24,000 bases of DNA, from assembly GCA_028280195.1 (NCBI GenBank), contig JANQMH010000079.1, forward strand, positions 50,452 through 74,451, read 5' to 3'. Both the position numbers and the translations under genes were made by a program. Under the pieces are notes generated by a model. The model searched no databases. It worked only from the letters and a program-made list of their open reading frames with translations, and was not told where the DNA came from. The stretch is from Exilibacterium sp. (GTDB lineage Bacteria; Pseudomonadota; Gammaproteobacteria; Pseudomonadales; Cellvibrionaceae). Positions within the stretch are counted from its first letter, which is position 1, and each line of letters opens with the position of its first letter. This document shows, piece by piece, positions 1 through 24,000 of this stretch.

Positions 1-1747
1 CTGTCTGCGGCTCGAGTATGTCGTTGCAGCGGTCGATCTGGCGGCGAAAAACCCCGCCGCGGCGGTACAGCGCCGCCGCCATATCCAGGTGCTGCAAACC
101 AGCCTCGGGAAAAACAAAAACCACCGCCGGCGGCGTGCCCGCAGTAACCGGCGCCGACGGGATCGATTGCGGCGACGACAGTATCGCCGCCGCCTGTTGC
201 CTATCGCCGGCAACAATGGCGGCGCGGTGGCAAAAAGCCCGCCGTCCGGACTGCAGCGTATGCGCCACATCCACCAGCCGCTGCCGCGGCTGGGTACGCA
301 GATGCTCGGCGAGCTGCAGGCAGGACTGCCGCAGCGCCTTGCCGTCGCGCGCCGACAGGGGCAGGACCTGGACACCGGGCTCGCCGTTGCCGCCATCCCC
401 GTCATCGCCAGTACTCTCGCCACCGCCAATATCCGGGGCGGGCCCCTCCTCGACGATGATATGTACATTGGTCCCGCCGATACCAAAGGCACTCACGCCC
501 GCCCGCCGCGGGTGGCCGGCGCCCGGCCACGGTTTGGTTTGCGTATTGACGTAAAACGGACTGTTGGCAAAATCGATCTCGGGGTTGGGCCGCTGGAAGT
601 TGAGGCTGGCGGGCAACACCTGATGTTTCAGTGCCATCACCGTTTTGATCAACCCGGCCACGCCGGCCGCCGCATCCAGGTGGCCGATATTGGTTTTCAC
701 CGATCCCAGTGCACAGTACTGGCGGCGCTGGGTGGTCGCGCCAAATGCTTCTGTCAGGGCCGCAACCTCAATCGGGTCACCGAGCGCTGAGCCCATGCCC
801 TGCGCTTCGATATAGCCGATGGTGCCGGCATCAACGGCCGCCACCAGCTGCGCCGCGCGAATCACCCGCGCCTGGCCCGCCACACTCGGTGCGGTAAACC
901 CGACTTTATCGGTGCCGTCGTTGTTGGCAGCGCTGCCCTTGATCAGCGCGTGTACGCTGTCGCCGTCGCGCAGCGCATCGGCCAGCCGTTTCAGCACGAC
1001 AATGCCTGCACCGCTGCCGAGCGGGGTGCCGGCGGCATCGGCATCGAAGGCGCGGCAGTGCCCGTCGGCCGACAAAACCGCCCCCGGCTGGTAGCGATAG
1101 CCGCCGTTCTGCAACAGGTTCAGCGACACCCCGCCGGCCAGCGCGGTATCGCATTCATAACCGAGCAGCGCCTGGCAGGCCATATGCACCGCCATCAGTG
1201 AGGTAGAGCAGGCAGTCTGCACCGTCACCGCCGGCCCGCGCAGATTCATTTTGTAGGCGACCCGGGTACAGAGGGCGTCGGCCAGGTTGGCGCTCATCAG
1301 CCCCAGCAAATCGGCGATATTGGCGCCGTTCTCCAGGCCGTAGCGCGGCAGTACATGTCTGATCAGATACAGGTTGGCGCCGCTGCCGGCGTAGACACCG
1401 ACGCTGCCGCTGCAGTTACAGGGGTCGTAGCCGGCATGCTCCAGCGCGGTCCAGGCGCACTCGAGAAAAATCCGCTGCTGCGGGTCCAGGTGCTCGGCAT
1501 CGCGCGGCGTATAGCCGAAAAATTCGGCATCGAAGCGGTCCGCACCGTCGAACACGATGCCCGCCTTGACATAGTCGGGGTCAGCCAGCAGCTCGGCGGG
1601 CACACCGCGCTGCCGCAGCTGCTCGTCACTGAAGGCAGTGACCGACTCCACCCCGGCGCAGATATTGTGCCAGAAGGCGTCGACATCTGCGGCACCGGGA
1701 AAGCGCCCCGCCATGCCCACAATGGCAATAGCTATATCATCCGTCAT
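1..1747 (-). CDS. Type I polyketide synthase, N-terminal part: KS domain, KS-AT linker and start of an AT-like domain. The 3' end runs off the left edge.
   Basis: Absent from the ORF track because there is no stop in the window. Manual minus-strand translation from ATG at 1747 (GAGGA 7 nt upstream; an in-frame alternative ATG is at 1771) gives MTDDIAIAIVGMAGRFPGAADVDAFWHNI...DPQQRIFLECAW. It continues VTVQTACSTSLMAVHMA (active-site Cys, codon 180, nt 1208-1210), GSVKTNIGHLDAAAG (His, nt 680-682) and FGIGGTNVHIIVEE. The linker is LPLSARDGKALRQ...VDVAHTLQSGRRAF, followed by VVFVFPEAGLQHLDM at the position of the AT N-terminal motif (nt ~100-125). The frame stays open to nt 1. Confidence 0.9.
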   Translation of the reverse strand, partial: MTDDIAIAIVGMAGRFPGAADVDAFWHNICAGVESVTAFSDEQLRQRGVPAELLADPDYVKAGIVFDGADRFDAEFFGYTPRDAEHLDPQQRIFLECAWTALEHAGYDPCNCSGSVGVYAGSGANLYLIRHVLPRYGLENGANIADLLGLMSANLADALCTRVAYKMNLRGPAVTVQTACSTSLMAVHMACQALLGYECDTALAGGVSLNLLQNGGYRYQPGAVLSADGHCRAFDADAAGTPLGSGAGIVVLKRLADALRDGDSVHALIKGSAANNDGTDKVGFTAPSVAGQARVIRAAQLVAAVDAGTIGYIEAQGMGSALGDPIEVAALTEAFGATTQRRQYCALGSVKTNIGHLDAAAGVAGLIKTVMALKHQVLPASLNFQRPNPEIDFANSPFYVNTQTKPWPGAGHPRRAGVSAFGIGGTNVHIIVEEGPAPDIGGGESTGDDGDGGNGEPGVQVLPLSARDGKALRQSCLQLAEHLRTQPRQRLVDVAHTLQSGRRAFCHRAAIVAGDRQQAAAILSSPQSIPSAPVTAGTPPAVVFVFPEAGLQHLDMAAALYRRGGVFRRQIDRCNDILEPQT

Positions 1748-1963
1748 GGATTCCTCGCCATGGGTATACATCAGCCGGCTGTCTCCGTCTTCTGAGGACA
1801 ACGCTGCAACGCGGCCGGCGCCGCCAAACCCACTGGCCGGCGGCAACGGTTGCAGCGAAGACACCGCCAGACCTGGCGGCAGTGGGGCGGTGCGACAGCG
1901 GGCGCCGATTTCCGCGGTGACCGTGTGCAAGCACCGGCGCCCTGCCGGCTTCTCACACAGATG

Positions 1964-1987
1964 ACGAGCGGGATGGAAAAGAATTTA
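1964..1987 (-). promoter_or_regulatory. PvdS-type iron-starvation (IS) box promoter, TAAAT-N16-CGT, upstream of the PKS gene
   Basis: The minus strand reads TAAAT TCTTTTCCATCCCGCT CGT, with TAAAT at 1987-1983 and CGT at 1966-1964. Spacing is exactly 16. The flanks are paralogous to the box at 21982-22005: TAAATTCTT...CTCGTCAT...AGAAGCCG. The -35 TAAAT contains the TAA stop of the upstream mini-FecR ORF. It lies about 217 nt upstream of the PKS ATG. Confidence 0.55.
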
Positions 1988-2227
1988 GGGGCAAGGCCGG
2001 AAACTGCTGCCGGACGGCGGCCTGCCCTGCTCATCGCGGGTAGGTATCAGCCCGGTTATCAACCACAGGCCGCGCACCTGCCGGTATACCTGCCGGTGTG
2101 CCGGCGCTTCAGCCAGCCAGTGCTGCAGCGCCTCGCGCGCCGCACCATCGCGGGGCTCCCGATACTCTTGCAGCGTCCAATTTACGGCCCATGCCCATGC
2201 CGCATCACCGCGCTCAGTCTCTGTCAT
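1985..2227 (-). CDS. Stand-alone FecR N-terminal domain (DUF4880-like) mini-protein, copy B (80 aa from ATG 2227; the track ORF extends to a TTG at 2314)
   Basis: MTETERGDAAWAWAVNWTLQEYREPRDGAAREALQHWLAEAPAHRQVYRQVRGLWLITGLIPTRDEQGRPPSGSSFRPCP. It has the A-x2-W...WL-x5-H-R-Q-x-Y...W pattern of the cytoplasmic sigma-binding domain of FecR/FpvR. There is no TM segment. It is a paralogue of 22176-22403, with about 42 of 73 aligned residues identical by eye. The start is uncertain because WPDSE upstream of the ATG is also conserved in frame in both copies. Confidence 0.6.
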   Translation of the reverse strand: MTETERGDAAWAWAVNWTLQEYREPRDGAAREALQHWLAEAPAHRQVYRQVRGLWLITGLIPTRDEQGRPPSGSSFRPCP

Positions 2228-2604
2228 TGCACGCTCACTATCCGGCCAATCAGACTTCCTAGTAGACGATTGACACCAGTATCTGTTAAGCCTGGCGCCG
2301 GCGTGATCTGACAAACCGCTGCGCCTATCGGCGCAGGTGTCCGGCAGTATTCGAAGCAGTAGACAATGCCCGGCTTTGGTCGGCGCTCAGCACCTGCCTG
2401 CCCGTGTCTGTTTTAGCGCCGCCCGGATATGGAAATGTTGAAAAATAACATTGCTATTTTTTCCGCTTCATTCGTTATTGGACATAGCAGGGCCGAAAAC
2501 GGGCAGCTGAGACGGCAGCAAGCCATTGATGCCGCAGTATGTCAGCTGTGCATAGGCATATGGGCATGTGGGTAACAGTTATTGGCGTTTTAGGCTGAAA
2601 TCAT

Positions 2605-2669
2605 AGTTGGTGGAAAAACAGTTGGTGGAAGAGCAGTTGCGAGTAGTACGGAATCAAGTAGTGCGGAAT
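2605..2669 (+). repeat. 15-bp-period tandem repeat tract directly upstream of the DUF3649-like/PepSY/TonB operon
   Basis: AGTTGGTGGAAaaac (2605), AGTTGGTGGAAgagc (2620) and AGTTGcGaGtAgtac (2635). These are followed by AGTAGTACGGAAT (2642-2654) and AGTAGTGCGGAAT (2657-2669), again 15 bp apart. The tract ends 8 nt before the ATG at 2678. Confidence 0.7.
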
Positions 2670-2677: not shown

Positions 2678-2956
2678 ATGGGACTCAGCGGATGGCGATT
2701 GTGTTCGGTGGCGTTGGCAGCACTGTTAGCAGGTTACTGCCTGGCAACAGCCGCCGGTGTATTCATTGGCAGCCTCTTACCGGTGCCCCGGGGTGAGGCG
2801 GTGTTAATCGGCATGCTCTGCAGTTTTGTGGTCTATGCAGGTGCGGTAATCTGGGCATTTGCGGTGCGCCGCCCCGCGCAGGTCTGGTTGGGCCTGATGA
2901 TACCCGCCTGCGCGCTGGCGGCAGCGGGCGCTGTTCTCGCTGGTTCCCCGCTATAA
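2678..2956 (+). CDS. Small inner-membrane protein, DUF3649-like (commonly found upstream of PepSY-TM iron-uptake proteins)
   Basis: 92 aa with three hydrophobic segments: RLCSVALAALLAGYCLATAAGVFIGSLLPVPRGEAVLIGMLCSFVVYAGAVIWAFAVRRPAQVWLGL. This matches my recollection of the DUF3649 pattern and of its conserved position before a PepSY-TM gene. The Shine-Dalgarno is weak, so the exact start is uncertain. Confidence 0.55.
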   Translation: MGLSGWRLCSVALAALLAGYCLATAAGVFIGSLLPVPRGEAVLIGMLCSFVVYAGAVIWAFAVRRPAQVWLGLMIPACALAAAGAVLAGSPL

Positions 2957-2985
2957 TCAGGTTCCCCGCCACAATCAATAGACCG

Positions 2986-4611
2986 GTGCAGAAGATTACT
3001 CGAGAAGACCCCAGCGAGGGCGGCTTTCGCCAGGCCATGGCCTGGTTGCACACCTGGTCGGGATTGATTCTCGGCTGGCTGTTATTCTTTATTTTCCTCA
3101 CCGGTACGGCGGGCTATTTCGATACCGAAATCGATCGCTGGATGCAGCCGGAGCTGCCCCGGGCACAGCCCCGCGCGGACACCGCCGCCACTGCCGCCGT
3201 GCTGCTGCAGCGCCTGCGCAGCGAGGCACCGGCGGCTGAGCGCTGGTTGCTGCTACTGCCGGTTGACCGCAACCAGCCCTACCCCGGTATCGCCTGGCGC
3301 GGCGCCGCTGCGGCTACCGGCGCCAGTGCCGCCAGCGGCAGTGCGAGGGTGGACGGCAGCAGCGGCAAAACACTGGCGGCACGGGATACCGGGGGCGGAC
3401 AGGCGCTCTACCGGATGCACTGGCGGCTGCACTATCTCTCCCGCGCCCAGGCGGATGTGATCGTCGGCGTCGCCACACTGTTTATGCTGGTGGCGCTGAT
3501 CACCGGCGTCATTATCCACAAGAAGATCTTTAAGGATTTCTTCACTTTCAGGCCCGGCAAGGGGCAGCGCTCCTGGCTGGATGCACACAATGTGCTGGGT
3601 GTGGCGGCCCTGCCCTTTCATCTGATGATCACCTATTCGGGCCTGGTTTTTATGGCCTTTTCCTATATGCCTTTAATCCTGACGGCTCACTACGGTGCCG
3701 GTGGCAGCGCGCAACAGCAGTTCAGAGCCGAAGTCTCCGATCCTCCCGGGCTTGTCGAAGCAGCGGGTGAACCGGCTGCCCTGGTAGCGCTGGGCGGCCT
3801 GATCGCGAAGGCGGAAGACCGCTGGGGACAGGGCCGGATTCGCAGTATCGATATCCGCCACCCGCAGCACAGCAACGCCCGCGTGATCTTCCATGAAAAT
3901 ATTGAAAAAGCGGCGGGCAATGCCGGCGAACGGCTGGTTTTCGATGGCGTTGACGGCACCCTGCTGCACACCCTGGCGCCGGCCACCTCCGCCGCACAGG
4001 GGTTCCGGGGCCTGCTTATCGGACTCCACGAAGGGCTGTTTGCGCCGCCGCTGCTGCGCTGGCTTTACTTCTGCTCGGGGCTGCTGGGCACCGGCATGAT
4101 CGCCACCGGTCTGGTATTGTGGACGGCCAAACGCCGGCGCCAGGCAGTGCGCGCCGCCGCTGCCACGCCGGCCGGCCTGCTGCTGGTGGAGAAGCTCAAT
4201 GTGGGTACGGTGGTGGGGCTGCCGCTGGGGATTGCCGCCTACTTTTGGGCCAACCGTTTGCTGGCCGTGGATATCGCCGGCCGCGCCGACTGGGAGATCC
4301 ACATCATGTTTCTCACCTGGTTGGCCATGCTGATCCACGCCGCTGTGCGACCGGCGCAGCGCGCCTGGGGGGAACAACTGCTGCTGGCCGCGTTCGCTTT
4401 CGGCGCGCTGCCCCTGCTCAACGCCATCACCACCGAGCGCCACTTAGGCCACAGCCTGGCTGCCGGCGACTGGGTGTTTGCGGGCTTTGACCTGAGCGTC
4501 CTGGCCATTGGCCTGGTATCGGGCTGGGCCGCCCGGCGGCTCTGGAAGCGGCCGCGCCAGGCGGCTTATCTGCCAGTGGCGCCGGCAGCACTGGACGGAA
4601 CCGGTTCGTGA
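2986..4611 (+). CDS. PepSY-associated TM-helix protein (PiuB/FoxB/FpvG-like putative inner-membrane ferric-siderophore reductase)
   Basis: 541 aa with a GTG start. The N-terminus GGFRQAMAWLHTWSGLILGWLLFFIFLTGTAGYFDTEIDRWM is the hallmark of this family. Other matches are YRMHWRLHY, HNVLGVAALPFHLMITYSGLVF, LHEGLFAPPLLRWLYFCSGLLGTGMIATGLVLW and several more TM helices. Confidence 0.85.
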   Translation: MQKITREDPSEGGFRQAMAWLHTWSGLILGWLLFFIFLTGTAGYFDTEIDRWMQPELPRAQPRADTAATAAVLLQRLRSEAPAAERWLLLLPVDRNQPYPGIAWRGAAAATGASAASGSARVDGSSGKTLAARDTGGGQALYRMHWRLHYLSRAQADVIVGVATLFMLVALITGVIIHKKIFKDFFTFRPGKGQRSWLDAHNVLGVAALPFHLMITYSGLVFMAFSYMPLILTAHYGAGGSAQQQFRAEVSDPPGLVEAAGEPAALVALGGLIAKAEDRWGQGRIRSIDIRHPQHSNARVIFHENIEKAAGNAGERLVFDGVDGTLLHTLAPATSAAQGFRGLLIGLHEGLFAPPLLRWLYFCSGLLGTGMIATGLVLWTAKRRRQAVRAAAATPAGLLLVEKLNVGTVVGLPLGIAAYFWANRLLAVDIAGRADWEIHIMFLTWLAMLIHAAVRPAQRAWGEQLLLAAFAFGALPLLNAITTERHLGHSLAAGDWVFAGFDLSVLAIGLVSGWAARRLWKRPRQAAYLPVAPAALDGTGS

Positions 4612-5519
4612 AAGATAATCTCGCGCGCCGGCCGCAGCTCGCCACCACCGGCAACAAGGGGCAAACGCGTTGCGGCCCGGCGTTGATCCTGCCCGGGGGG
4701 CGGGAAACACCGCCGGTGGACAGGTCAGCGCGCTTGCCGGCCGGCAAAACCACATCCCGCTGGCTGTCAGCTCTGCTGATCGCCGTACTGGTCCACAGCG
4801 CGCCGCTGGTCTGGTGGCTGCTGCCCGACAATGAGCCCGCCGCAGCCGGCACACTGCCCCCGGCCGCGATGGTGATCGAGCTGGCACCTGCAGCGGTGGC
4901 GCCGGCATCCCGGGCGGATAGGCCACCCGGCCCCGAGCGGGCCGCTGCCAGCGCCCGCCCCGAAGTACAGCGCGTTGCCGCGCCGCAGGCGGATATGCCA
5001 CCGGCTCCACCCGCCAGCAAACCCGAGGTGGCCGTCAATACGGAACCCAAAGCGGAACCCGAGCAACAACCGCGGCCGCTGCCGCCGCCCCTGTTGGAGC
5101 AAGCGCAAGACATACCACCGCGGCAACAGCCGCCCGGCCCCGCCAGCGCAGCAGCGGATGCGCCCCGGCAAGACGAACAGGCGGCGGCCCCCAAGCGGGG
5201 GGCAGCAGTACCCGCCGTTGACGCCAGCGTACTGCCCGACTGGCAAAGTGCGCTGATGTTCAAACTCAATGAGGCCAAGCGCTACCCGTCCCGCGCCCGC
5301 CGCTACCGCCAGCAAGGTGTCGCCTATCTGCGCTTTACCATGGATCGGCAGGGCAATGTGCTGGCGAAAAGCATCGAGCAAAGCTCGGGACACCGACTGC
5401 TGGATAAGGAGACACTGGCGCTGCTCGACCGGGTCCAGCCCCTGCCCGAGCCGCCGGCGGCGCTGGCGGGCAGGACACTGGAGTTTGTCATACCGGTGGA
5501 ATTCTTTTTAAGGCGTTGA
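4608..5519 (+). CDS. tonB: TonB-family energy transducer
   Basis: The GTG start overlaps the PepSY stop (GTGA), suggesting translational coupling. It has one TM helix (WLSALLIAVLVHSAPLVWWLL) and a long Pro/Ala/Glu-rich spacer (PPAPPASKPE...EPEQQPRPLPPP). The C-terminal TonB domain reads YPSRARRYRQQGVAYLRFTMDRQGNVLAKSIEQSSGHRLLDKETLALLDRVQPLPEPP. About 50 aa precede the TM, so an in-frame GTG at 4716 is a plausible alternative start. Confidence 0.8.
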   Translation: MKDNLARRPQLATTGNKGQTRCGPALILPGGRETPPVDRSARLPAGKTTSRWLSALLIAVLVHSAPLVWWLLPDNEPAAAGTLPPAAMVIELAPAAVAPASRADRPPGPERAAASARPEVQRVAAPQADMPPAPPASKPEVAVNTEPKAEPEQQPRPLPPPLLEQAQDIPPRQQPPGPASAAADAPRQDEQAAAPKRGAAVPAVDASVLPDWQSALMFKLNEAKRYPSRARRYRQQGVAYLRFTMDRQGNVLAKSIEQSSGHRLLDKETLALLDRVQPLPEPPAALAGRTLEFVIPVEFFLRR

Positions 5520-5534
5520 GTGATTGCAGTGTCT

Positions 5535-6044
5535 TCAGCCGGCTGGCTGCGGGTAACTGCGCTTTATTTCTCTAATATACTTGGCTGCGGAGCGATAATG
5601 GCTGGCACCGGAGGCCTCGATCCAGCGCCCCAATGGCCATTTACCCTGCCACTCGAACTTGATCGGGCCGTACAGGGCCTTATTGTTGTGCTCGGCCATA
5701 AAGTCCATCAGGCGTTTATGCGCCGCGGCAAGCCGGGACTTCGCCGTGGACCAGGCCATCCTCGCGTTCTTTTCCCGTACCCTGGCATTGTACTCTTTCA
5801 ATTGATTCCATTTATATCCTTTGGCGGGTACGTATACGGGCTTGCCGGCGACACCGTCCTCATACCAGTTAAAAAACAGATCGATCCAGTGGATGCGGTG
5901 GGCCAGCGTGTCTTTAATGGTGATACCGTCGTCCGGATGCGGTGCCACAGCCAGTTTTTTATCGACGCCGTCCAGTACCTTCTGCAGTTTTTCGAACTCT
6001 TTTTCAGTAATTGCGATCAGATCGGCTCTTGTCGCGGCTGCCAT
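5535..6044 (-). CDS. ClbS/DfsB-family (DUF1706) four-helix-bundle protein, last gene of the RND operon
   Basis: I place the start at ATG 6044, with GGAGGAGA 7-14 nt upstream. The track ORF starting at 6122 would overlap the RND gene. Sequence: MAAATRADLIAITEKEFEKLQKVLDGV...TIKDTLAHRIHWIDLFFNWYEDG...GYKWNQLKEYNARV...ALYGPIKFEWQGKWPLGRWIEASGASHYRSAAKYIREIKR. This matches the ClbS/DUF1706 pattern as I remember it: W-x-L-x2-W, F/YKWN-x-L, LYG, W-x2-GR-x-I...S-x-Y...IRK. Confidence 0.8.
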   Translation of the reverse strand: MAAATRADLIAITEKEFEKLQKVLDGVDKKLAVAPHPDDGITIKDTLAHRIHWIDLFFNWYEDGVAGKPVYVPAKGYKWNQLKEYNARVREKNARMAWSTAKSRLAAAHKRLMDFMAEHNNKALYGPIKFEWQGKWPLGRWIEASGASHYRSAAKYIREIKRSYPQPAG

Positions 6045-6060
6045 GGGTGTTCTCCTCCGA

Positions 6061-9000
6061 TTACGTCTGTTTGCTCTGCAAGCTGCCGGCGGCAGCGGCG
6101 GCGGGTTGCCCTTTATCGGCAAGCAGTTGGTCCAGTTCGCGGCTTACGTCGCCCACCGAGCCGGTGCCGCGGGCAATCAGATGGTAAAACACCGGCACGA
6201 CAAACAGCGTAAACAAGGTCGCCGAGGCCACCCCCGCCAGCACTACCACGCCGATGACCGTGCGCGTCTCGGCGCCGGCACCACTGGTGAGAATCAACGG
6301 CAGCGAACCGGCGGCGGTGGTGATGCCGGTCATGATAATCGGCCGCAGGCGCACTTGCGCCGCCTGCAGCAGTGCCTGGGAAAACGCCATGCCCTGATCG
6401 CGTAGCTGATTGACGAACTCGACAATCAGAATGCCGTTTTTCGCCGCCAGCCCCACCAGCATGATCAGGCCGATCTGCGAGTACAGATTCAGCGACCCGC
6501 CGGTAACATACAGTGCGGCGAGCCCGCCGCCGATGGCCAGCGGTACACTGGTCATAATCACAAAGGGATGCAGCCAGCTTTCGAACTGCGCCGCCAGCGC
6601 CAGATAGGTCACGAAGATGCCGAGCAGAAATACCCAGATAATCGATTGACCGGCGTATTTGAAATCCTGTGACTGGTCCTTGTAATCAATGATGACATCG
6701 CTGGGCAGGTGTTCGCGCACCAGGTTTTCGAGATGCTCCAGCGCCTCGCCCAGGGTATAACCCTCGGCCAGATTGGCTTCCAGTGTAATGGCGCGGATGC
6801 GGTTGTAGCGGTTGAGTTCATTGCTGCTGGCAAACTCCTCGACCCGCACCAGATTTGACAGCGGGATCAGCTGATCGCTTCTGTCCGAGCGCACATAGAT
6901 ATTTTCCAGGTTGGAAATGGTGCGCTGCTGATCGCGCTCGCCCTCGAGCATGACATCGTATTCCTCACCCTCATCGATATAGGTGGTCACTCGCCGCGAG
7001 CCGAGCATGGTCTCCAGGGTGCGGCCGATATCGCCGATGGTGACGCCGATTTCGGCGGCGCGGTCGTAGTCGATGGCCACCTCGAGTTGCGGTTTGGTTT
7101 CCTTGAAGTCCCAGTCGAGGCCGACGAAACCGGGATTGTCCGCGTCGATTTTATCCACCAGAATATCGCGCCACTCGGCCAGCTGTTCGTAAGTGCCGCC
7201 GCCGATGACAAAGCTGACCGGCTTTGCAGCCGCCGAGCCGAAACCCTGGCGCATGATCGGGAAGGCGCGCACACCCGGCAGATCGGCCAGCTTGTTGCGC
7301 ACTTCATCGACAATGGTAAAAGCATCGCGGCGCTCGTCCCAGTGCTCGAGTACGGAAATCACAATACCGGTGTTATAGTTCTCGGTGCGACCGAAGGCGC
7401 GCGGCGCCCTGATCAGCAGGCGGGTAATCTCGCCGCTTTCTACATAGGACATCAGCCGCCGCTCAATTTCATCCATATACTCTTTCATATAGCTGTAGGT
7501 GGCGCCCTCGGGCCCGTTGACGATAATGAAGAACGCGCCGCGGTCCTCCTTCGGCGCATATTCCTGGGGCAGCTGCTGAAAGACCCAGACCAGCACGGCG
7601 ACCAGCGCGGCAAAGGCCAGCAGCACCACTGAGGCATACTTTATACAGCGGCTCAGTGCGGCAACGTAGGCGCGCTGGCAGACTTTTACCGCGGCGTCGA
7701 TGCGCCTGACGATAACATTGCCCTGGGTTGAGGGCTTGAGGATTTTGGAGGCCAGCATCGCCGACAGCGTCAGGGCGACAAAAGAGGAGAACATCACCGC
7801 CGCCGACATGGTCAGGGCAAATTCGCTGAACAGCCGCCCCACATCGCCGCGCTGAAAGGCGATCGGTGTAAACACCGCCACCAGCACCAGGGTCGTGGCC
7901 ACCACCGCGAAGGCCACCTGGCGGGCGCCGCGAAACGCCGCCAGCAGCGGCGGCTCTTTGTACTCGTCGATGCGGCGCTTGATATTTTCCAGCACCACGA
8001 TCGAATCGTCGACGATCAGACCGATGGCCAGCACCATCGCCAGCAGGGTCAGCAGGTTGACGGAAAAGCCCATGGCATACAGCGCAATGGAGGTGGCGAT
8101 CACCGAGACCGGCACCGTCACCGCCGGCACCAGCATGGCCCTGACACTGCCGAGAAAGGCGTAAATCACCAGAATCACCAGGCAAATGGCGATCGCCAGG
8201 GTGCGATAGACCTCGCCGATGGCGCCCTCGATAAATACCGAGGTGTCGTAACTCTGCTCGAGAAGCATGTGCGCGGGCAGGTTTTCATTGATCTGGTTTC
8301 TGACATTTCTGGCTTCGCGCGCGACATCGATAATATTGGCGGTGGACTGCTTGATAATGCCGATGCCCACCTGCGGAATGGCATTGCCGCGGAAAAAGTT
8401 GCGCGCCTCTTCGGTGCCCTTTTCCACCCGCGCCACATCCCCGAGCCGCACCAGGTAATTGCCGGCGCCGGCATCGCCCCGGGAGATCACCAGGTTGGCA
8501 AAATCATCCGCGGAGCGGAATGCGCGCTTGGTGCGCACGGTAAACTGCCGCTCGTCGCTTTCGATACTGCCCGCCGGCAGTTCCACGTTCTCGGCGCGCA
8601 GTGCATCCTCGACATCGTTGACGGTCAGGTCCCGCGCCGCCAGTGCCCTGCGGTCCAGCCAGATGCGCATGGCAAAGCGCTGGCGGCCGCCGATACGCAC
8701 CCGCGAGACACCGTCGATCACGGAAAAGCGATCGACCAGGTAGCGCTCGGCGTAGTCGGTCAACTCCAGCACCGTCATACCATCGCCGGTCAGGTTGAAC
8801 CAGACGATGACATCGTCGTTGCTGTCCTCTTTCTGTATTTCCGGCGGGTCTGCCTCCACCGGCAGATTGTCCAGTACGCCGCTGACCCGGTCGCGGATAT
8901 CGTTGGCGGCGGCGTCGACATCGCGGCCGATATCGAACTCGACGGTGATGCGGCTGCGGCCGTCGCGCGATGAGGACTCGATAAAACGGATACCCTCGAC

Positions 9001-9219
9001 ACCGGCGATGCGCTCTTCCATGATCTCGGTAATACGCGACTCCACCACATTGGCGGCGGCCCCGGGGTAATTGGTTTCGACGCTGACAATCGGCGGGTCG
9101 ATATTGGGATACTGTCGCAGCGGCAGGCGGTCAAAGGCCAGCAGACCGAAGATGATCAACAGAACGGAAATAACCGCGGCAAATACCGGCCGTCGGATCG
9201 ACACATCGGAAAGTACCAC
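6061..9219 (-). CDS. RND (AcrB/HAE1-type) efflux transporter permease
   Basis: 1052 aa, GTG start with a G-rich SD. N-terminus: SIRRPVFAAVISVLLIIFGLLAFDRLPLRQYPNIDPPIVSVETNYPGAAANVVESRITEIMEE. It has the 12-TM, two-large-loop architecture, including VDDSIVVLENI and GLAAKNGILIVEF. There are 15 nt after the adaptor gene stop and 16 nt before the ClbS-like start. Confidence 0.95.
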   Translation of the reverse strand: MVLSDVSIRRPVFAAVISVLLIIFGLLAFDRLPLRQYPNIDPPIVSVETNYPGAAANVVESRITEIMEERIAGVEGIRFIESSSRDGRSRITVEFDIGRDVDAAANDIRDRVSGVLDNLPVEADPPEIQKEDSNDDVIVWFNLTGDGMTVLELTDYAERYLVDRFSVIDGVSRVRIGGRQRFAMRIWLDRRALAARDLTVNDVEDALRAENVELPAGSIESDERQFTVRTKRAFRSADDFANLVISRGDAGAGNYLVRLGDVARVEKGTEEARNFFRGNAIPQVGIGIIKQSTANIIDVAREARNVRNQINENLPAHMLLEQSYDTSVFIEGAIGEVYRTLAIAICLVILVIYAFLGSVRAMLVPAVTVPVSVIATSIALYAMGFSVNLLTLLAMVLAIGLIVDDSIVVLENIKRRIDEYKEPPLLAAFRGARQVAFAVVATTLVLVAVFTPIAFQRGDVGRLFSEFALTMSAAVMFSSFVALTLSAMLASKILKPSTQGNVIVRRIDAAVKVCQRAYVAALSRCIKYASVVLLAFAALVAVLVWVFQQLPQEYAPKEDRGAFFIIVNGPEGATYSYMKEYMDEIERRLMSYVESGEITRLLIRAPRAFGRTENYNTGIVISVLEHWDERRDAFTIVDEVRNKLADLPGVRAFPIMRQGFGSAAAKPVSFVIGGGTYEQLAEWRDILVDKIDADNPGFVGLDWDFKETKPQLEVAIDYDRAAEIGVTIGDIGRTLETMLGSRRVTTYIDEGEEYDVMLEGERDQQRTISNLENIYVRSDRSDQLIPLSNLVRVEEFASSNELNRYNRIRAITLEANLAEGYTLGEALEHLENLVREHLPSDVIIDYKDQSQDFKYAGQSIIWVFLLGIFVTYLALAAQFESWLHPFVIMTSVPLAIGGGLAALYVTGGSLNLYSQIGLIMLVGLAAKNGILIVEFVNQLRDQGMAFSQALLQAAQVRLRPIIMTGITTAAGSLPLILTSGAGAETRTVIGVVVLAGVASATLFTLFVVPVFYHLIARGTGSVGDVSRELDQLLADKGQPAAAAAGSLQSKQT

Positions 9220-9234
9220 ACTGCCCCCCGGCTG

Positions 9235-10347
9235 TTAGAGATTGGCTGATTTGAGGTTCGGGCCGACCGCGGCCGCCTCGCCACTGTCGGCGGGCAGCAG
9301 CACCTGGCCGCCGGATTTCACTTTGAAGGCGCCGTGGGTGATGACCTGCTCGCCGACCTCCAGCCCCTGGCTGATTTCAACCTCGCCGCGCCGCCGGCCG
9401 GCAACGGTGACCCGGCGCTTCTCCGCGATCACCTGATCCTGTTGCGGGTTCACCACCATCACGTAGTTGTCGCGCCCCTCGGGCAGCAGCGACTCCTCGG
9501 ATATCACCAGGGCCTGGCGCTCATTCATAAACAGAGAGATCTGCATCAACATGCCCTGCTTCAGCAGCTGCTCGTCGTTGGGCAGGATGGCGCGCACATT
9601 AATGGCGCGGGTGACGCGATCGACCTGGTTGTCGATACTCAGCACCTGGCCGCGAAACTCCCGCTCGCGGTAAGCGCGGGTGGTGGCCACAATCGGCAAT
9701 GCGGTCTGCAGAGAGGGAAGGAATACCGCCGGCACGGTAAAGTCCAGCTTCATACGCGTGTCGTCGGTGAGGGTGGTGATGAGATCGCCGGGGCGCACCA
9801 GTGCGCCGAGGCTGATATTGCGCAGCCCCACCTGGCCGGCGAAGGGCGCCTTGACAACCCGGTCTCTGAGCCGCGACTGCATGGCGATCAACCGCGCCTG
9901 CGCCGCATCGTAGTCGCGCTGGCGCTCGTCCAGCACCGATTCGGAGGCATTGCCCACCCGCACCAGCCTGGCAATGCGGTCGAGTTGGCGCTTGGCCTCG
10001 CGAGCGTTGGTCTGTGCCTCCACCAGCAGCGCCTTTTCCTCAGCGCTGGTCATTTCCACCAGCACCTGGTCCGCCGCCACCCGCTGGCCGTCCTCAAAGT
10101 GAATGGCGGTGATGGTCTCGGTGACATTGACCGTCAACTCCACCGATTCATTGGCCCGCAGCGTGCCCAGCGCCTCGGTCTGATCACGAAAAGTATCCTC
10201 GCGCACGGTTTCCACCTTGACCGCTACCGGTGCGCCCGGCTGGGCCGCACTCAAACCGGCGCCGGCCGCCAGTACGGCCGCCAGGCAACAGGGATTCAAA
10301 GCAAGCGTTTTTACCAAGGTATAGCAATAGCGGAGTGGCTTTATCAT
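9235..10347 (-). CDS. RND periplasmic adaptor (membrane fusion protein, HlyD/AcrA family)
   Basis: 370 aa with an N-terminal signal/anchor. A coiled-coil hairpin region (EAKRQLDRIARL...YDAAQARLIAMQSRL) is flanked by beta-rich lipoyl/barrel segments (VKAPFAGQVGLRNISLGALVRPGDLITTL). It sits immediately upstream of the RND permease. Confidence 0.9.
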   Translation of the reverse strand: MIKPLRYCYTLVKTLALNPCCLAAVLAAGAGLSAAQPGAPVAVKVETVREDTFRDQTEALGTLRANESVELTVNVTETITAIHFEDGQRVAADQVLVEMTSAEEKALLVEAQTNAREAKRQLDRIARLVRVGNASESVLDERQRDYDAAQARLIAMQSRLRDRVVKAPFAGQVGLRNISLGALVRPGDLITTLTDDTRMKLDFTVPAVFLPSLQTALPIVATTRAYREREFRGQVLSIDNQVDRVTRAINVRAILPNDEQLLKQGMLMQISLFMNERQALVISEESLLPEGRDNYVMVVNPQQDQVIAEKRRVTVAGRRRGEVEISQGLEVGEQVITHGAFKVKSGGQVLLPADSGEAAAVGPNLKSANL

Positions 10348-10515
10348 GCAGCAGTGGCCATTAAAGAAAGTGAGGGATTATCGTCTGTGCACCGGTGTTC
10401 AAAGTAGCGGATATGCGTATGAGGCGAGTTGGTCGAGAAAGTTCATCCGCTGTCGGCGCAAGTGCTGGCATGCTAGCAGACTCCGTATGCCGGCGCCAGT
10501 CGCCGCCGGGCCAAT

Positions 10516-10539
10516 ACGAATACATTTTATTTAGATTTA
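10516..10539 (-). promoter_or_regulatory. Candidate third IS-box-like element (TAAAT-N16-CGT) upstream of the RND adaptor/pump/ClbS-like operon
   Basis: The minus strand reads TAAAT CTAAATAAAATGTATT CGT, in the 249-nt gap between the TetR stop (10597) and the adaptor start (10347). Orientation is correct and spacing is exactly 16. It lacks the extended flank similarity shared by the other two boxes and sits in an AT-rich patch, so a chance match is possible. Confidence 0.3.
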
Positions 10540-10596
10540 TCAAACGGTTAAGACGCCTACTTAGAGCCTGACGCCACTTTCTGAAGCCGCCGGCCG

Positions 10597-11247: not shown

Positions 11248-11325
11248 AGAAATTTTCCTTGCAATTTCTTTGCTGTAGAGATTAATATTCTGCGCCGTAG
11301 AAATCAATTTCTTCGCTGTAGAAAT
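11244..11325. promoter_or_regulatory. Phased operator-like repeats in the TetR/MFS divergent promoter region
   Basis: GCTGTAGAGAT (11272), GCCGTAGAAAT (11294) and GCTGTAGAAAT (11315) are spaced 22 and 21 bp apart. There are also dyads AGAAATT-N8-AATTTCT (11249-11270) and AGAAAT-CA-ATTTCT (11299-11312). Confidence 0.5.
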
Positions 11326-11363
11326 CCGTATCTGATTAACCGTGTTTTAAACAGGAGGCTGTA

Positions 11364-21634: not shown

Positions 21635-21916
21635 TTATTGCCCAACCTCAGCGATTTCGCCGGCAGGGTTATGAGGGGATGTCGCGGATTTATTGGCGGC
21701 CTGCTCGTCCATCCATTTGCGCAGTGACAGTGGCCGCATATCTGTCCAGGCTTTCTCTACGTAATCCAGAACGGTTTTCTTGTCGCCCTTGACACCTTCG
21801 ACCACCGTCCATCCCCCCGGCACCGACTTCCAGTGAGGCCAGATAGAATATTGCTCTTCGTGGTTGATAAGAACGATGAAAGTCTCGTCTTCGCGGTCAA
21901 AACAACTGCTTGTCAT
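21635..21916 (-). CDS. mbtH: MbtH-like protein (NRPS adenylation-domain chaperone)
   Basis: FIVLINHEEQYSIWPHWKSVPGGWTVVEGVKGDKKTVLDYVEKAWTDMRPLSLRKWM contains the three invariant Trp residues and the N-x-E-x-QYS-x-WP and WTDMRP-x-SL signatures. At 93 aa it carries a ~20 aa C-terminal tail beyond the usual core. GCGAGG SD. Confidence 0.95.
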   Translation of the reverse strand: MTSSCFDREDETFIVLINHEEQYSIWPHWKSVPGGWTVVEGVKGDKKTVLDYVEKAWTDMRPLSLRKWMDEQAANKSATSPHNPAGEIAEVGQ

Positions 21917-21981
21917 GGGTATAACCTCGCTTTGATTAGATAAGCGCCCAAAGGGTGACTTATCGGCTTCTAAATGACATG

Positions 21982-22005
21982 ACGAACGAGGCTGCGAAGA
22001 ATTTA
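21982..22005 (-). promoter_or_regulatory. PvdS-type iron-starvation (IS) box promoter, TAAAT-N16-CGT, upstream of the mbtH-hydroxylase-NRPS operon
   Basis: The minus strand reads TAAAT TCTTCGCAGCCTCGTT CGT, with TAAAT at 22005-22001 and CGT at 21984-21982. It lies about 66 nt upstream of the mbtH ATG. The flanks are paralogous to the box at 1964-1987. Confidence 0.55.
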
Positions 22006-22175: not shown

Positions 22176-22403
22176 TCAGTGGTCGCCGGGCGGCGGCTCA
22201 TCCTGCTCGTCAGCCGTTGGCACCATTCCGGTTAGCAGCCATAACCTGCGGGCCTCCTCATAGGCTTGCCGGTGCGCCGCCGCCTCGGCCAACCAGAGTA
22301 ACAGCGCCCTGCGCGCCGCGTCGTCGAAGGATTCGTCGTGTTCCCGCACAATCCAGTCTACGGCCTGCCGCCATGCCGCATTGCCACGCACATCGTCTGT
22401 CAT
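22176..22403 (-). CDS. Stand-alone FecR N-terminal domain (DUF4880-like) mini-protein, copy A (75 aa from ATG 22403; 83 aa from GTG 22427)
   Basis: MTDDVRGNAAWRQAVDWIVREHDESFDDAARRALLLWLAEAAAHRQAYEEARRLWLLTGMVPTADEQDEPPPGDH. It has the FecR/FpvR cytoplasmic-domain pattern, no TM helix and no periplasmic domain. It is a paralogue of 1985-2227. It sits 150 nt downstream of the PvdS-like sigma gene. Confidence 0.6.
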   Translation of the reverse strand: MTDDVRGNAAWRQAVDWIVREHDESFDDAARRALLLWLAEAAAHRQAYEEARRLWLLTGMVPTADEQDEPPPGDH

Positions 22404-22553
22404 CACACACTCACTGTCCGGCCACACAGGCTTTCACAATAGCCGATCCAGAACCACCCGTCTTTCCTTTAGGTCGACCTGATCCATGCAATGTGCGATA
22501 TCATAGCAATAGTAAGGCTAAAGCGCAGCTATGGCGTTATCGCGGCGCTTAAA

Positions 22554-23135
22554 TCATGCAGGGCCCAGGGCCAGTCGGCAGTGGTCCAGTGCATCCCGAA
22601 TCATGAAGTTTACCAGTGTCGGAGAAACATCCAGCATGCGGGCAATCTCTCGTTGAGTGTGGCCATCCATTCGATACAACTCAAAGGCGCGCCTGGTTCG
22701 CTCCGGCAGCTGGTCAAGGGCGCGGGCAACCGACCGCAACTGCTGGCTGCTGATGGAAATCGCTTCAGGTGTTCCCGTCGATGACGGCACACTCCGCCCC
22801 TCCTCTGCAACCGCAAAAACGCCGGACTCCAGCACACCGCGCCGGTAATGGTCTATCGCCAGATTGCGTACGATTCTGAAAATATAGGCTGTGGGCTGCC
22901 TGACAACGAAGACCTCCCCAGCCTCTATCACTTTGAGGTAGGCATCCTGCACTACATCTTCAGCCTTATCCCGACTTCCCAGTATCTTCATCGCTACCGT
23001 GCACAATTGGCTGCGATGTGCAACAAAGATATCTACGAGATCTCTGAGCTTCTCATCTGCGTGCACCCTTAGGTCCTCCAGCCTCATAGTCAACTGCACA
23101 AAGACGGCGCTACCTTGAATGACTGTCATTCGCAT
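22554..23135 (-). CDS. pvdS: ECF sigma-70 factor of the iron-starvation PvdS/FecI group
   Basis: Region 2: KAEDVVQDAYLKV...YIFRIVRNLAIDHYRR. Region 4: LPERTRRAFELYRMDGHTQREIARMLDVSPTLVNFMIRDALDHCR. From memory these closely resemble P. aeruginosa PvdS (FQIVRNLAIDHYRK; VSPTLVNFMIRDAL). This is consistent with the TAAAT-N16-CGT promoters in the window. An internal Met at 23087 (MRLEDL...) would give a PvdS-like length and may be the true start. Confidence 0.88.
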   Translation of the reverse strand: MRMTVIQGSAVFVQLTMRLEDLRVHADEKLRDLVDIFVAHRSQLCTVAMKILGSRDKAEDVVQDAYLKVIEAGEVFVVRQPTAYIFRIVRNLAIDHYRRGVLESGVFAVAEEGRSVPSSTGTPEAISISSQQLRSVARALDQLPERTRRAFELYRMDGHTQREIARMLDVSPTLVNFMIRDALDHCRLALGPA

Positions 23136-23358: not shown

Positions 23359-24000
23359 TTATTGACTGAGCACCAGTAACCAGGGGCTGATCTGCAACGC
23401 TGTCGCACCGTGCGCTGCAGCCATCTCCTGCAGCGTTGCAACCGGATCATCCAGCCGGTAGAGACCTGTCACCTGTTGACTGGCAAGGGGCTCGGTAACC
23501 AGTATGACACCGTTGTAATAATGTCGAAAAACTTCCACCACCTCGGCTACTGGCAGGTTGCGGGCGATCAATTCGTTTTTGCGCCAGCGCGCAACGTCCT
23601 CCGGCTCGACACGGGTAAGGTTGACACCGCGCTCCGGGGATATGGACAACTGCTCACCGGCAACCAGCGTCTCTGCTACCCTTGGCGATATATGGTGGTC
23701 CTCGATACGCACATGGCCATGGGCAACCCCGACCACGACGCCATGGGCAGATTTGCTGATAGCAAAGGCGGTGCCCAGAACAGTCGTATGAGTGCCGCCC
23801 GCAGTGACACGGAAGGGACGGCCGGCATCCGCCTGCACCTCGAAATAAGCAGTGCCCTTTAACAGCCGGACAATGCGCTGCTCGCCGGTAAACGTAATGC
23901 TCAGGGCACTTTCCGGTGCCAGGATGAGTTTACTTCGATCCGGCAATACGTGAGTTTGTTGTTCACCGGTAGCGGACAGATAATCGGCCGAGAGCCACAG
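23359..24000 (-). CDS. fecR: FecR/FpvR-type transmembrane anti-sigma regulator, periplasmic C-terminal part (the N-terminus lies beyond the right edge)
   Basis: The frame is open from nt 24000: LWLSADYLSATGEQQTHVLPDRSKLILAPESALSITFTGEQRIVRLLKGTAYFEVQADAGRPFRVTAGGTHTTVLGTAFAI. This carries the FecR-domain signature (GE..v.L.DgS...L...S.l; G.A.F.V.....PF.V......v.VLGT.F). The C-terminal part is VEVFRHYYNGVILV...LASQQVTGLY. The TTG 'start' at 23946 in the track is internal. Confidence 0.85.
   Translation of the reverse strand: MWLSADYLSATGEQQTHVLPDRSKLILAPESALSITFTGEQRIVRLLKGTAYFEVQADAGRPFRVTAGGTHTTVLGTAFAISKSAHGVVVGVAHGHVRIEDHHISPRVAETLVAGEQLSISPERGVNLTRVEPEDVARWRKNELIARNLPVAEVVEVFRHYYNGVILVTEPLASQQVTGLYRLDDPVATLQEMAAAHGATALQISPWLLVLSQ

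Follow-up and report, generated by a model that had tools for sequence, protein, structure and literature searches.

The second mini-FecR gene (copy B) in the 24,000-nt stretch of Exilibacterium sp. DNA analysed here (the window) is best explained as an intact second member of its protein family that has lost the spacer behind the coding region and is welded to the promoter of a siderophore PKS operon, with its protein setting sigma-factor activity; we regard this joint explanation as about evenly poised between right and wrong. On the minus strand the gene ends TTC CGG CCT TGC CCC TAA ATT C, and its stop codon supplies the opening three bases of the TAAAT -35 element of an IS box, as an earlier sequence-only reading had claimed and as is read directly from the sequence; the box is where that reading put it, except that its span starts at 1963 and not at 1964. 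The last residues of the protein, SGSSFRPCP, are new sequence. The overlap of stop codon and -35 element is a minor evolutionary accident, and it illustrates a promoter module travelling with a small regulator gene and re-arming half of a split biosynthetic operon. The cluster is split here by 13 kb, with copy B heading the PKS half, while NRPS and PKS genes abut in the related loci L001 and L044. The PKS gene starts at ATG 1747 (GAGGA ahead) or ATG 1771, and its counterpart in L036 and L037 has a KS-AT-PP-C... architecture. The features are collected in Table 1.

Table 1. Coordinates of the features around mini-FecR copies A and B in the window
Feature	Position	Strand	Remarks
PKS gene, 5' part (KS domain)	1..1771	-	ketoacyl-synt 241 bits; continues beyond the window
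IS box, candidate promoter of the PKS operon	1963..1987	-	TAAAT 1983-1987, N16, CGTC 1963-1966
Mini-FecR copy B	1985..2227	-	80 aa; ATG 2227, stop TAA 1985-1987; public gene calls agree on the 80-aa product
Conserved 5' leader of copy B	2228..2264	-	contains the 15-mer
15-mer TGGCCGGAYAGTGAG, copy B leader	2234-2248	-	3' end AGTGAG at the Shine-Dalgarno position
Candidate ECF-type promoter of copy B, TTAAC-N16-CGTC	2265..2289	-	62 nt upstream of ATG; from motif conservation
MbtH-like gene	21635..21916	-	first gene past the copy A IS box; domain search
IS box, mbtH-TauD-NRPS operon	21981..22005	-	exact TAAAT-N16-CGTC match
Mini-FecR copy A	22176..22403	-	75 aa; canonical copy, immediately 3' of the sigma gene; DUF4880 37 bits
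15-mer TGGCCGGAYAGTGAG, copy A leader	22410..22424	-	exact match
Degenerate counterpart of the ECF-type promoter, copy A	22442..22466	-	GAAAG...CGGC
sigma2, PvdS/OrbS/PfrI-type iron-starvation ECF sigma factor	22554..23087	-	domain search, NF005448
Fur-box-like palindrome GAATGAC-A-GTCATTC	23115..23133	-	sigma2 promoter region
Full-length FecR gene, 3' part	23359..24000	-	FecR 67 bits; PF04773 match present

By profile search, mini-FecR is a true protein family, whose soluble members of 63-110 aa have the cytoplasmic FecR/PupR sigma-binding domain and no other part. The search returned 334 library matches, the top 62 all 49-130 aa long and full-length FecRs appearing only from E ~6e-9; the family numbers 148 clusters at E<=1e-8 and, in another search, 234 clusters at E<=1e-10. 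Its proteins stop 5-25 residues past LTGLVPP in variable tails that are acidic and Pro-rich, and the members examined have no transmembrane helix and no hydrophobic stretch after the cytoplasmic domain. Many are nevertheless named 'transmembrane sensor' in annotation, and descriptions of siderophore clusters list the gene uncommented or state that an anti-sigma factor is absent. Across 20 family pairs dN/dS is 0.11-0.43 (~0.3 for copy B against its relatives), values by which the domain is under purifying selection. W11, W17, W37 and W55 are invariant in the family, and we take them to match FecR L13, W19, W39 and W50. Mutation of these FecR residues abolishes induction (PMC9249621).

Copy B has the three-helix sigma-binding domain of this type and lacks both a transmembrane segment and a periplasmic domain; a Pfam search found no match to the periplasmic FecR domain PF04773 in either copy. 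That it is a paralogue of copy A on the FecR N-terminal domain, as first proposed, agrees with the DUF4880 scores (37 bits for copy A and 17.5 bits for copy B, with a cut-off of 25) and with the match of the family profile to full-length FecR (hhalign, 99.3% probability on residues 8-69). The AlphaFold model of copy B shows three helices (pLDDT 72), and its top six PDB matches in a fold search are the PupR cytoplasmic domain/ASD, entries 5COS and 5CAM (TM 0.81 and rmsd 1.6 A against 5cam_B). The Foldseek E-values are weak (1.2-2.3), as expected because the domain is helical and only 55 residues long. Sequence searches of the PDB with copy A and with the family profile gave no match even at E 1-10, and PupR was found by the fold search only.

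In Beta- and Gammaproteobacteria, a mini-FecR gene typically has a PvdS-like sigma gene on one side and the IS-box promoter of an mbtH-NRPS operon on the other. In a genome scan with a 12-sequence alignment, 24 of 26 loci have the sigma gene immediately upstream, and 15 of the 26 have mbtH downstream; the order sigma gene, mini-FecR, mbtH is likewise found in L001, L040, L042, L044 and L045. Two ORFs upstream in L045 were considered as a second sigma/mini pair, and their translations look spurious. Culturable genera with family members include Variovorax, Duganella, Achromobacter, Cupriavidus and Microbulbifer, and PvdY (PA2427) of P. aeruginosa may be a relative, while PvdYII is unrelated. 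Copy A occupies the default place of the family, right after a sigma gene of putative PvdS/OrbS/PfrI type and probably under Fur control, and right before a siderophore mbtH-NRPS IS box. The open frame of this sigma gene (sigma2) reaches 23135, with ATG 23087 the likely start (the L045 orthologue begins MRLEDL). It scores 220 bits against NCBIfam NF005448 (cut-off 190), which we take to be the PvdS model, and FecI models stay far under their own cut-offs. The 7-1-7 palindrome near it matches the Fur consensus at 12 of 19 positions, and such palindromes are kept upstream of sigma2 in many loci and of sigma1 in relatives. The neighbouring full-length FecR gene is part of an upstream sigma1-FecR pair, L003 having the order sigma1-FecR-sigma2-miniA. 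Copy B adjoins no sigma gene, and the best Fur-box match upstream of it (11/19) is unconvincing. Its neighbours are the 92-aa/PepSY_TM/TonB genes, the site of the single copy in L040 and L042.

The IS-box consensus, TAAAT-N16-CGT(C), is taken as in PMC6037834. In the form TAAAT-N16-CGTC it occurs exactly twice in the window, both times on the minus strand, ahead of the PKS gene and of mbtH; the chance expectation is 0.09, and none of 100 shuffles contained at least two matches. A T[ATG]AA[ACT]-N16-CGTC box lies 3' of the mini-FecR gene in 27 of 32 related loci, mostly just ahead of mbtH, with TAAAT, TAAAC, TGAAT and TGAAC as -35 variants, and the box before mbtH in Herbaspirillum seropedicae has been found by experiment to be PfrI-dependent (PMC6037834). 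These observations fit an IS box of the PvdS type. The distance from stop codon to box is 0 nt in copy B, 20-21 nt in five Duganella or Pseudoduganella loci, 24-53 nt in Aquabacterium and Acidovorax, and 98-915 nt in the remaining loci; in copy A, 173 nt separate the stop from the T of TAAAT, close to the ~170 nt first given. The alignment of copy B with L044, L040 and copy A holds to around codon 70 and resumes shortly before TAAAT, and the spacer, retained at 160-330 nt in its relatives, is missing in copy B alone, so that its frame continues through new sequence to the first stop, the TAA of the -35 element. From this alignment, the overlap looks like a deletion scar.

Upstream of copy B, a TTAAC-N16-CGTC motif has counterparts (T[TG]AAC-N16-CGTC) at -60 to -64 in L040, L042, L044 and L045; two Aquabacterium loci, L017 and L030, have one at -51 and -72. 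The form TGAAC-N16-CGTC also recurs 3' of the gene, as the box ahead of mbtH, in Aquabacterium and Acidovorax. The promoters are thus candidates assigned from motif conservation, TTAAC and TAAAT differing at two of five positions. There is no terminator-like site between copy B and the PKS start, which makes co-transcription plausible, in line with the read-through proposed from the sequence alone; nor is there a minus-strand terminator between the mini-FecR genes and the IS boxes in the window. In L001, a clear terminator is seen by eye between mini-FecR and the IS box.

Under the preferred explanation, copy B would have retained the ancestral ECF-type promoter (TTAAC-N16-CGTC) and the 5'UTR, with its 15-mer and Shine-Dalgarno sequence, and lost the 160-330-nt spacer between gene and IS box. 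The result would be two tandem promoters of the same sigma type, ~300 nt apart and both feeding the PKS operon, with mini-FecR B made from a transcript that runs on into the PKS gene. In the cytoplasm, the protein would bind the neighbouring sigma factor at region 4, without a link to a surface signal, and set sigma activity. Its sign we infer by analogy, leaning towards a pro-sigma or stabilising role; an anti-sigma effect by titration, as with FpvR 1-67, is nearly as likely. With a pro-sigma role, mini-FecR would be a natural counterpart of the FecR 1-59/1-85 fragments, which activate constitutively, and of the N-tails that RseP releases from FoxR and FiuR. FecI is constitutively activated by N-terminal fragments of FecR, and pro-sigma activity is described for the FoxR and FiuR N-tails, while FpvR 1-67, the only N-terminal FecR-type fragment tested on PvdS, inhibits it (PMC9249621).

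A bolder version of the pro-sigma role is possible but doubtful: mini-FecR may be a naturally 'pre-cleaved' pro-sigma factor, by which a FecI/FecR pair that signals from the cell surface was turned into a signal-independent two-component sigma system in many Beta- and Gammaproteobacteria. If so, the iron-starvation sigma factor would need, or be stabilised by, a 70-aa partner that it transcribes itself, giving positive feedback. The promoters would have subfunctionalised, copy A keeping a sigma70-type -10 and copy B the ECF-type promoter, welded to the PKS operon. Clusters such as pfrI-mbtH of H. seropedicae, in which no anti-sigma factor was found, would also be accounted for.

With the same tentative standing, mini-FecR could instead be a soluble anti-sigma that titrates the iron-starvation sigma factor and sets a threshold silencing leaky expression. 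It would exert negative feedback on siderophore synthesis, because a promoter of the same sigma type drives it and copy B is co-transcribed with the PKS gene. FpvR 1-67 does bind and inhibit PvdS and FpvI (PMC9249621, PMC4256889), 10 ECF groups are predicted to include soluble anti-sigma factors (PMC7826278), and an ECF-type promoter motif is conserved ahead of the mini-FecR gene. In addition, every sigma-to-mini spacer contains a -10-like element, suggesting Fur-independent expression. However, the proteins show neither a sensing domain nor a conserved degron, their C-terminal tails vary, and most FecR-type N-fragments that have been tested activate rather than inhibit. Lineages needing no anti-sigma regulation (e.g. 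OrbS) are without the gene (PMC9023288), and here the domain is under purifying selection.

It is unlikely that copy B is a non-working, decaying remnant, carried because its 3' end and flanks supply promoters to the PKS operon. Such decay would fit its position below the Pfam threshold and on the longest branch of the family tree, where non-synonymous change is 2-3 times that on the sister branch, and also the change to V of A51, nearly invariant in the family, and the replaced C-terminus. The single strain variant seen (99% identical) carries three non-synonymous and no synonymous changes in copy B, the coding region being conserved no better than the flanks. However, the reading frame is intact in all five strain contigs, the invariant Trp, Gly and Pro residues are all kept, dN/dS on the branch is about 0.35-0.4 and not 1, and the gene still has its start codon, Shine-Dalgarno context and promoter. 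The low Pfam score (17.5 against 25 bits) and the faster non-synonymous change nevertheless count against the preferred explanation, and copy B may be losing function.

The origin of copy B bears on a further claim of the sequence-only reading, that leader, mini-FecR, IS box and downstream motif were duplicated as one block from copy A in this genome and later remodelled. Local alignment pairs B 2257-2009 with A 22433-22185, that is, ~30 nt of leader upstream of the ATG and the coding core, at 66-77% identity; similarity returns at the IS box (38 of 60 positions identical), and TAAATTCTT...CGTCAT...AGAAGCCG follows both copies. Similarity thus extends outside the coding part, to leader and IS box, but the copy A spacer has no counterpart in B. 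Moreover, orthologues in other genomes are no more distant from copy B than copy A is, be it in protein (64% identity to P0182, 59% to P0175 and P0194, 56% to A), by blastn (72% over 254 nt in L044 and 71% over 268 nt in L042, against 68.5% to A and no match in the IS region) or at synonymous sites (dS about 1.2-1.3 between A and B, 0.64 between B and L044). The same holds for the leader and for the IS-box region, which is 85% identical over 54 nt to that ahead of mbtH in L042. Its site, too, is that of the single copy in L040 and L042. By these comparisons copy B is not a recent copy of A, and the likeness of the two boxes is one of common sigma specificity, since extended similarity spans genera: the Nitrosospira boxes and the copy A box have TAAATTCTTCG in common. 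Block duplication is therefore very improbable. A check of flanking-gene identities to L040, L042, L044 and L045 for a mosaic or horizontally transferred origin of the B side gave no clear split.

The leader of both copies contains the 15-mer noted at the outset, two positions below the coordinates first given (2236-2250 and 22412-22426) and ending 7 nt before the ATG in each; its counterparts in relatives are TGGCCAGACGGTGGG, TGACCAGACGGTGGG, TAGCCAAACGGTGAG and TGGCCAGGTGGTAAG. It lies in a conserved 5'UTR behind the conserved ECF-type promoter motif, which favours the regulatory or RBS-context option, one of the two originally put forward. Folding of four leaders gave z-scores of -0.2 to +0.9 and no stable structure. 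The other option, in which translation from a non-ATG start further upstream would make the 15-mer a conserved N-terminal extension of the protein, can be practically set aside. The frame is open and reads WPDSE in both copies, with ORF limits at GTG 22427 (A) and TTG 2314 (B) as claimed, but in an alignment read by eye L040 has the stop TGA and L044 the stop TAG in place of the Trp codon and L045 is frameshifted, so that the 15-mer is taken as non-coding. Moreover, TTG 2314 is the nearest such start in copy B, the family proteins all begin, with MT(D/E), ~8-10 residues ahead of the first conserved Trp, and the public gene calls choose the ATG.

FecR-type regulators are textbook cases of a cell-surface signal relayed to a sigma factor, and whether the N-terminal fragment activates or inhibits is debated by system. 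No characterised stand-alone FecR N-domain was found in the literature searched. The same gene pair has been listed, as an 'ECF sigma-DUF4880 module' upstream of receptors in Stutzerimonas (PMC13037486) and as a 'DUF4880 domain-containing protein' in a Halomonas NRPS cluster with MbtH, TE, PPTase and TauD (PMC10291192), in both cases without function, family analysis or promoter context. Herbaspirillum seropedicae (PfrI/CirA/mbtH) shares the order sigma gene, IS box, mbtH, and PfrI is required for the mbtH promoter; unlike here, its authors report no anti-sigma homologue in the region (PMC6037834), and no Herbaspirillum member occurs among the best 120 named matches to the mini-FecR family. 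OrbS of Burkholderia cenocepacia differs in having no partner protein and a C-terminal Cys cluster as an 'on-board anti-sigma' (PMC9023288); sigma2 has no such C-terminal extension, and has the mini-FecR instead.

The known systems closest in domain are PupR, FpvR and FecR. The three-helix anti-sigma domain of PupR (5COS, 5CAM), which acts with PupI, is the best structural match to the copy B model, although sequence identity is 22% and PupR goes on into a TM helix and periplasmic domains; for binding of this PupR domain to the C-terminal domain of its sigma factor, the Kd is 180 nM (PMC12809585). FpvR/PvdS/FpvI of Pseudomonas aeruginosa has the PvdS-type sigma factor, the TAAAT-N16-CGT IS box, Fur above the sigma gene and a FecR-type domain binding sigma region 4, and the sigma1-FecR pair of the window resembles fpvI-fpvR. 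However, FpvR is a full-length membrane anti-sigma controlled by FpvA and proteolysis, and we know of no stand-alone N-domain gene beside pvdS. The fragments FecR 1-59 to 1-85 of E. coli are the same domain at nearly the same length, with the FecI-binding aromatic and hydrophobic positions conserved in mini-FecR; both are soluble, cytoplasmic and encoded beside a sigma gene, and the engineered fragments act without the surface signal. The partner of mini-FecR, in contrast, is PvdS-like and not FecI-like, and controls biosynthesis and not a receptor. Finally, the FecR fragments derive from a 317-aa membrane protein, by truncation in the laboratory or by RseP cleavage, whereas the short form of mini-FecR is the gene itself, conserved in two proteobacterial classes. 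A conserved, naturally free-standing N-domain paired with a siderophore sigma factor offers a clean test bed, free of membrane, proteolysis and receptor.

The mini-FecR, represented in the window by copies A and B, is a FecR-type regulator naturally reduced to its sigma-binding domain. Of the 334 representatives returned by an exhaustive profile search, the 62 best are without exception 49-130 aa long, and full-length FecRs (~320 aa) enter the list only from E ~6e-9; family profiles used in word-indexed searches yielded 148 clusters at E<=1e-8 and 234 at E<=1e-10. Members share the pattern W..A..W(V/I).R.HE...(L/F)D......L..WL...P.HR.AY..A..LWLLTGLVPP, stop 5-25 residues after LTGLVPP in variable acidic, Pro-rich tails, and contain no hydrophobic segment. 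By hhalign, the family aligns to residues 8-69 of its nearest full-length FecR relatives (probability 99.3%). The AlphaFold model of copy B has three helices (pLDDT 72), and its six best PDB matches are the PupR cytoplasmic domain (5cam_B, TM 0.81, rmsd 1.6 A), with weak E-values (1.2-2.3). Together with dN/dS values of 0.11-0.43 across twenty orthologue pairs, the profile and fold evidence indicates that mini-FecRs are real genes under purifying selection. Database names are generic only ('DUF4880 domain-containing protein', 'FecR/PupR family sigma factor regulator', 'FerR', 'transmembrane sensor'). Many 65-90-aa members carry the label 'transmembrane sensor' or 'ferric-dicitrate binding protein FerR' yet have no membrane or periplasmic part; the names seem to have been carried over from the full-length protein. 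In the literature searched, the stand-alone gene is listed only, and no functional study or family description was found; for Herbaspirillum seropedicae, it is reported that pfrI has no anti-sigma homologue beside it (PMC6037834).

A genome scan (one genome per species) yielded 26 loci, mostly betaproteobacterial (Variovorax, Acidovorax, Aquabacterium, Methylibium, Duganella, Pseudoduganella, Herminiimonas, Nitrosospira, Nitrosovibrio, Rhodocyclaceae) and including one MAG labelled Gammaproteobacteria. In 24 of these, the gene immediately upstream of mini-FecR encodes a homologue of the window's sigma factor, and in 15 mbtH lies downstream. In the Rhodocyclaceae MAG locus L009, a full-length-FecR-like gene (3186-4220), not a sigma gene, is directly upstream, and no sigma homologue turned up within 4 kb. 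At 64-68% identity, the nearest relatives of A and B come from the gammaproteobacterium Microbulbifer taiwanensis (L040) and metagenome contigs L042, L044 and L045, in which sigma gene, mini-FecR and mbtH keep the common order. L040 and L042 read sigma1-FecR-sigma2-mini-MbtH-TE-PPTase-NRPS, with a 92-aa/PepSY_TM/.../TonB operon divergent from sigma1; in locus L003, a further sigma gene (sigma1) precedes the FecR gene. NRPS and PKS, adjacent in L001 and L044, are 13 kb apart in the window, and the TE and PPTase genes, which relatives carry between mbtH and NRPS, are missing from the intervening stretch. The window's organism is represented by metagenome contigs only (TARA, Logan assemblies). 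The 92-aa membrane ORF matches no Pfam family and is 58-61% identical to its counterparts in L040 and L042, which likewise lie just upstream of PepSY_TM.

Features of the window in minus-strand order, from the right end
Feature	Position	Strand	Remarks
Full-length FecR gene, 3' part		minus	
Sigma70-like promoter (promoter-like site)	23166-23138	minus	
Fur-box-like perfect 7-1-7 palindrome	23115-23133	minus	GAATGAC-A-GTCATTC; inside annotated 193-aa sigma ORF
sigma2, ECF sigma gene	22554-23087	minus	NF005448, 220 bits (cut-off 190)
-10-like element before copy A	22500-22508		TGCTATGAT
Degenerate counterpart, before copy A, of the candidate ECF-type promoter	22442-22466		GAAAG...CGGC
15-mer before copy A	22410-22424		
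mini-FecR copy A	22176-22403	minus	75 aa
IS (iron-starvation) box A	21981-22005	minus	TAAAT-N16-CGTC
MbtH, TauD-family hydroxylase, NRPS		minus	NRPS 1765 aa
Next 13 kb	2678-15206		peptidase S9, MFS transporter, TetR regulator, MFP-RND efflux pair, DinB-like gene, TonB, PepSY_TM, 92-aa membrane protein
Relaxed IS-like match	10361-10385	plus	TTAAAGAAAGTGAGGGATTATCGTC; MFP-TetR spacer, antisense to TetR
PepSY_TM gene	2986-4611		
92-aa membrane ORF	2678-2956	plus	just upstream of PepSY_TM
Candidate ECF-type promoter before copy B	2265-2289		T[TG]AAC-N16-CGTC
15-mer before copy B	2234-2248		
mini-FecR copy B	1985-2227	minus	80 aa
TAA stop of copy B	1985-1987	minus	first three bases of TAAAT in IS box B
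IS box B	1963-1987	minus	TAAAT-N16-CGTC
PKS gene		minus	begins with KS domain

Exact TAAAT-N16-CGTC occurs only twice in the 24 kb (chance expectation 0.09), and since copy B ends with TAA at one of these sites, its stop codon is the start of the -35-like TAAAT. The overlap described in the sequence-only reading is thus real (the minus strand reads ...FRPCP-TAA, followed immediately by ATTC), as are the limits proposed for both ORFs and the ~170 nt between copy A and its own box (measured, 173 nt). Copy B can be aligned with L044, L040 and copy A to about codon 70 (...DEQ..PP.), and the alignment resumes a few bases ahead of TAAAT; a spacer of 160-330 nt is absent from B alone, and nothing corresponds to its final nine codons (SGSSFRPCP). 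To judge from these alignments, the overlap is a deletion scar, the frame continuing to the first available stop, which the promoter happens to provide. As an accident confined to this locus, it is of modest interest. Of 32 loci, 27 have a T[ATG]AA[ACT]-N16-CGTC box downstream of the mini-FecR stop, at distances of 0 nt (copy B), 20-21 nt (five Duganella or Pseudoduganella loci), 24-53 nt (Aquabacterium, Acidovorax) or 98-915 nt (remaining loci), so that packing too tight for a terminator recurs, with B at the extreme. Lineages differ in the -35 element (TAAAT, TAAAC, TGAAT or TGAAC); CGTC(A/T)T does not vary. A TAAAT-N16-CGT box before mbtH in H. seropedicae requires the PvdS homologue PfrI (PMC6037834). 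The IS-like match in the MFP-TetR spacer is probably due to chance. In Duganella and Pseudoduganella, a Fur-like AATGA-N3-TCATT directly follows the IS box (L014, 4260-4272; same place in L015, L016 and L025), which suggests that this sigma-dependent promoter may also be under direct Fur control.

Duplication of leader, mini-FecR and IS box as a block, as had been proposed, is made unlikely by identity, blastn, dS and an NJ tree, all of which place B closer to orthologues in other genomes than to A. Amino-acid identity of B is 64% with P0182 and 59% with P0175 and P0194 (orthologues in other genomes), against 56% with A. In blastn comparisons the match of B to L044 is 72% over 254 nt and that to L042 is 71% over 268 nt, the latter reaching 63 nt upstream of the ATG; for the IS-box region of B, identity with L042 is 85% over 54 nt. 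B versus A (via L003) gives 68.5% over 251 nt, with no match in the IS region. The dS is 0.64 for B-L044 and ~1.2-1.3 for A-B, and in the tree B groups with L040/L042/L044 and A with L045. By these measures B did not arise by recent copying of A. B also adjoins the 92-aa/PepSY_TM/TonB genes, the site of the single copy (with sigma1-FecR-sigma2) in L040 and L042. On the simplest reading, B would mark an old or ancestral site that now lacks sigma, FecR and the segment from mbtH to NRPS, and A would be part of another regulatory block, itself complete; flanking-gene identities do not separate old duplication from recombination between clusters.

The frame, start context and all invariant residues of copy B are intact in five strain contigs. 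It scores below the Pfam threshold, and non-synonymous change on its branch is 2-3 times that on the sister branch. The one variant strain, TARA contig L035, 99% identical over 793 nt (window 1870-2662), shows three differences within B, none synonymous (E to D, S to P, C to F), versus eight in 550 nt of flanks. Copy B is probably under relaxed constraint or has taken on a different role, and it may have lost its function completely.

The 15-mer leader is present before both copies, 2 nt from where it had been placed, and reads WPDSE in frame in each. It belongs to a conserved leader, the corresponding sequence being TGGCCAGACGGTGGG in L042, TGACCAGACGGTGGG in L040, TAGCCAAACGGTGAG in L044 and TGGCCAGGTGGTAAG in L045. 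L001, which is more distant, and the Betaproteobacteria do not have it. A coding role, one of two offered for it, fails: the 'Trp' triplet is a stop in L040 (TGA) and L044 (TAG), the frame is shifted in L045, and all family proteins begin MT(D/E) at the ATG. Its 3' end, (A/G)GTGAG, occupies the Shine-Dalgarno position, and the leader contains no significant RNA structure. On this comparison the 15-mer is a non-coding part of the leader.

The candidate ECF-type promoter of copy B recurs in L040, L042, L044 and L045, in all five cases 60-64 nt before the ATG, and TGAAC-N16/17-CGTC is found at -51 and -72 in two Aquabacterium loci. TGAAC-N16-CGTC is also the box between mini-FecR and mbtH in those lineages, so the neighbouring sigma factor is the likely reader of the mini-FecR promoter. 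The counterpart before copy A is degenerate. Further upstream, every sigma-to-mini spacer holds a putative -10-like TAnnnT (TGCTATAAT in L040 and L042; TATACAAT, CTATACT, CTACACT or GATACGAT in Betaproteobacteria), an element that the region upstream of copy B does not contain. In Variovorax and Acidovorax it lies just 7-15 nt before the mini-FecR ATG, which hints at leaderless mRNAs. As a counterpart of the window's Fur-box-like palindrome, AATGA-N3-TCATT precedes sigma2 in L040, L042, L044 and several Oxalobacteraceae loci, and sigma1 in L040 and L042. The sigma2 start is probably ATG 23087 (MRLEDL..., as in L045).

The window holds a probable PvdS-type sigma factor, two IS boxes of the matching type preceding two biosynthetic operons, and a sigma-binding-domain gene behind each of two differing promoter arrangements. 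Under iron limitation, Fur would release sigma2, which would transcribe the mbtH-NRPS and PKS operons and also read the promoter before B; if so, B mRNA would continue into the PKS gene, no terminator being found between them. The mini-FecR would bind region 4 of sigma2. It may act there as a pro-sigma factor or stabiliser, a reading we favour tentatively: FecR 1-59 to 1-85 constitutively activate FecI, the FoxR and FiuR N-tails have pro-sigma activity, and binding shields sigma factors from turnover (PMC9249621). A sensorless, purely inhibitory domain would moreover be easier to lose, as in OrbS (PMC9023288), than to keep under selection. An anti-sigma role is only a little less probable. Autoregulated sigma/anti-sigma pairs are common, which speaks for it, as does FpvR, whose residues 1-67 inhibit PvdS (PMC9249621).
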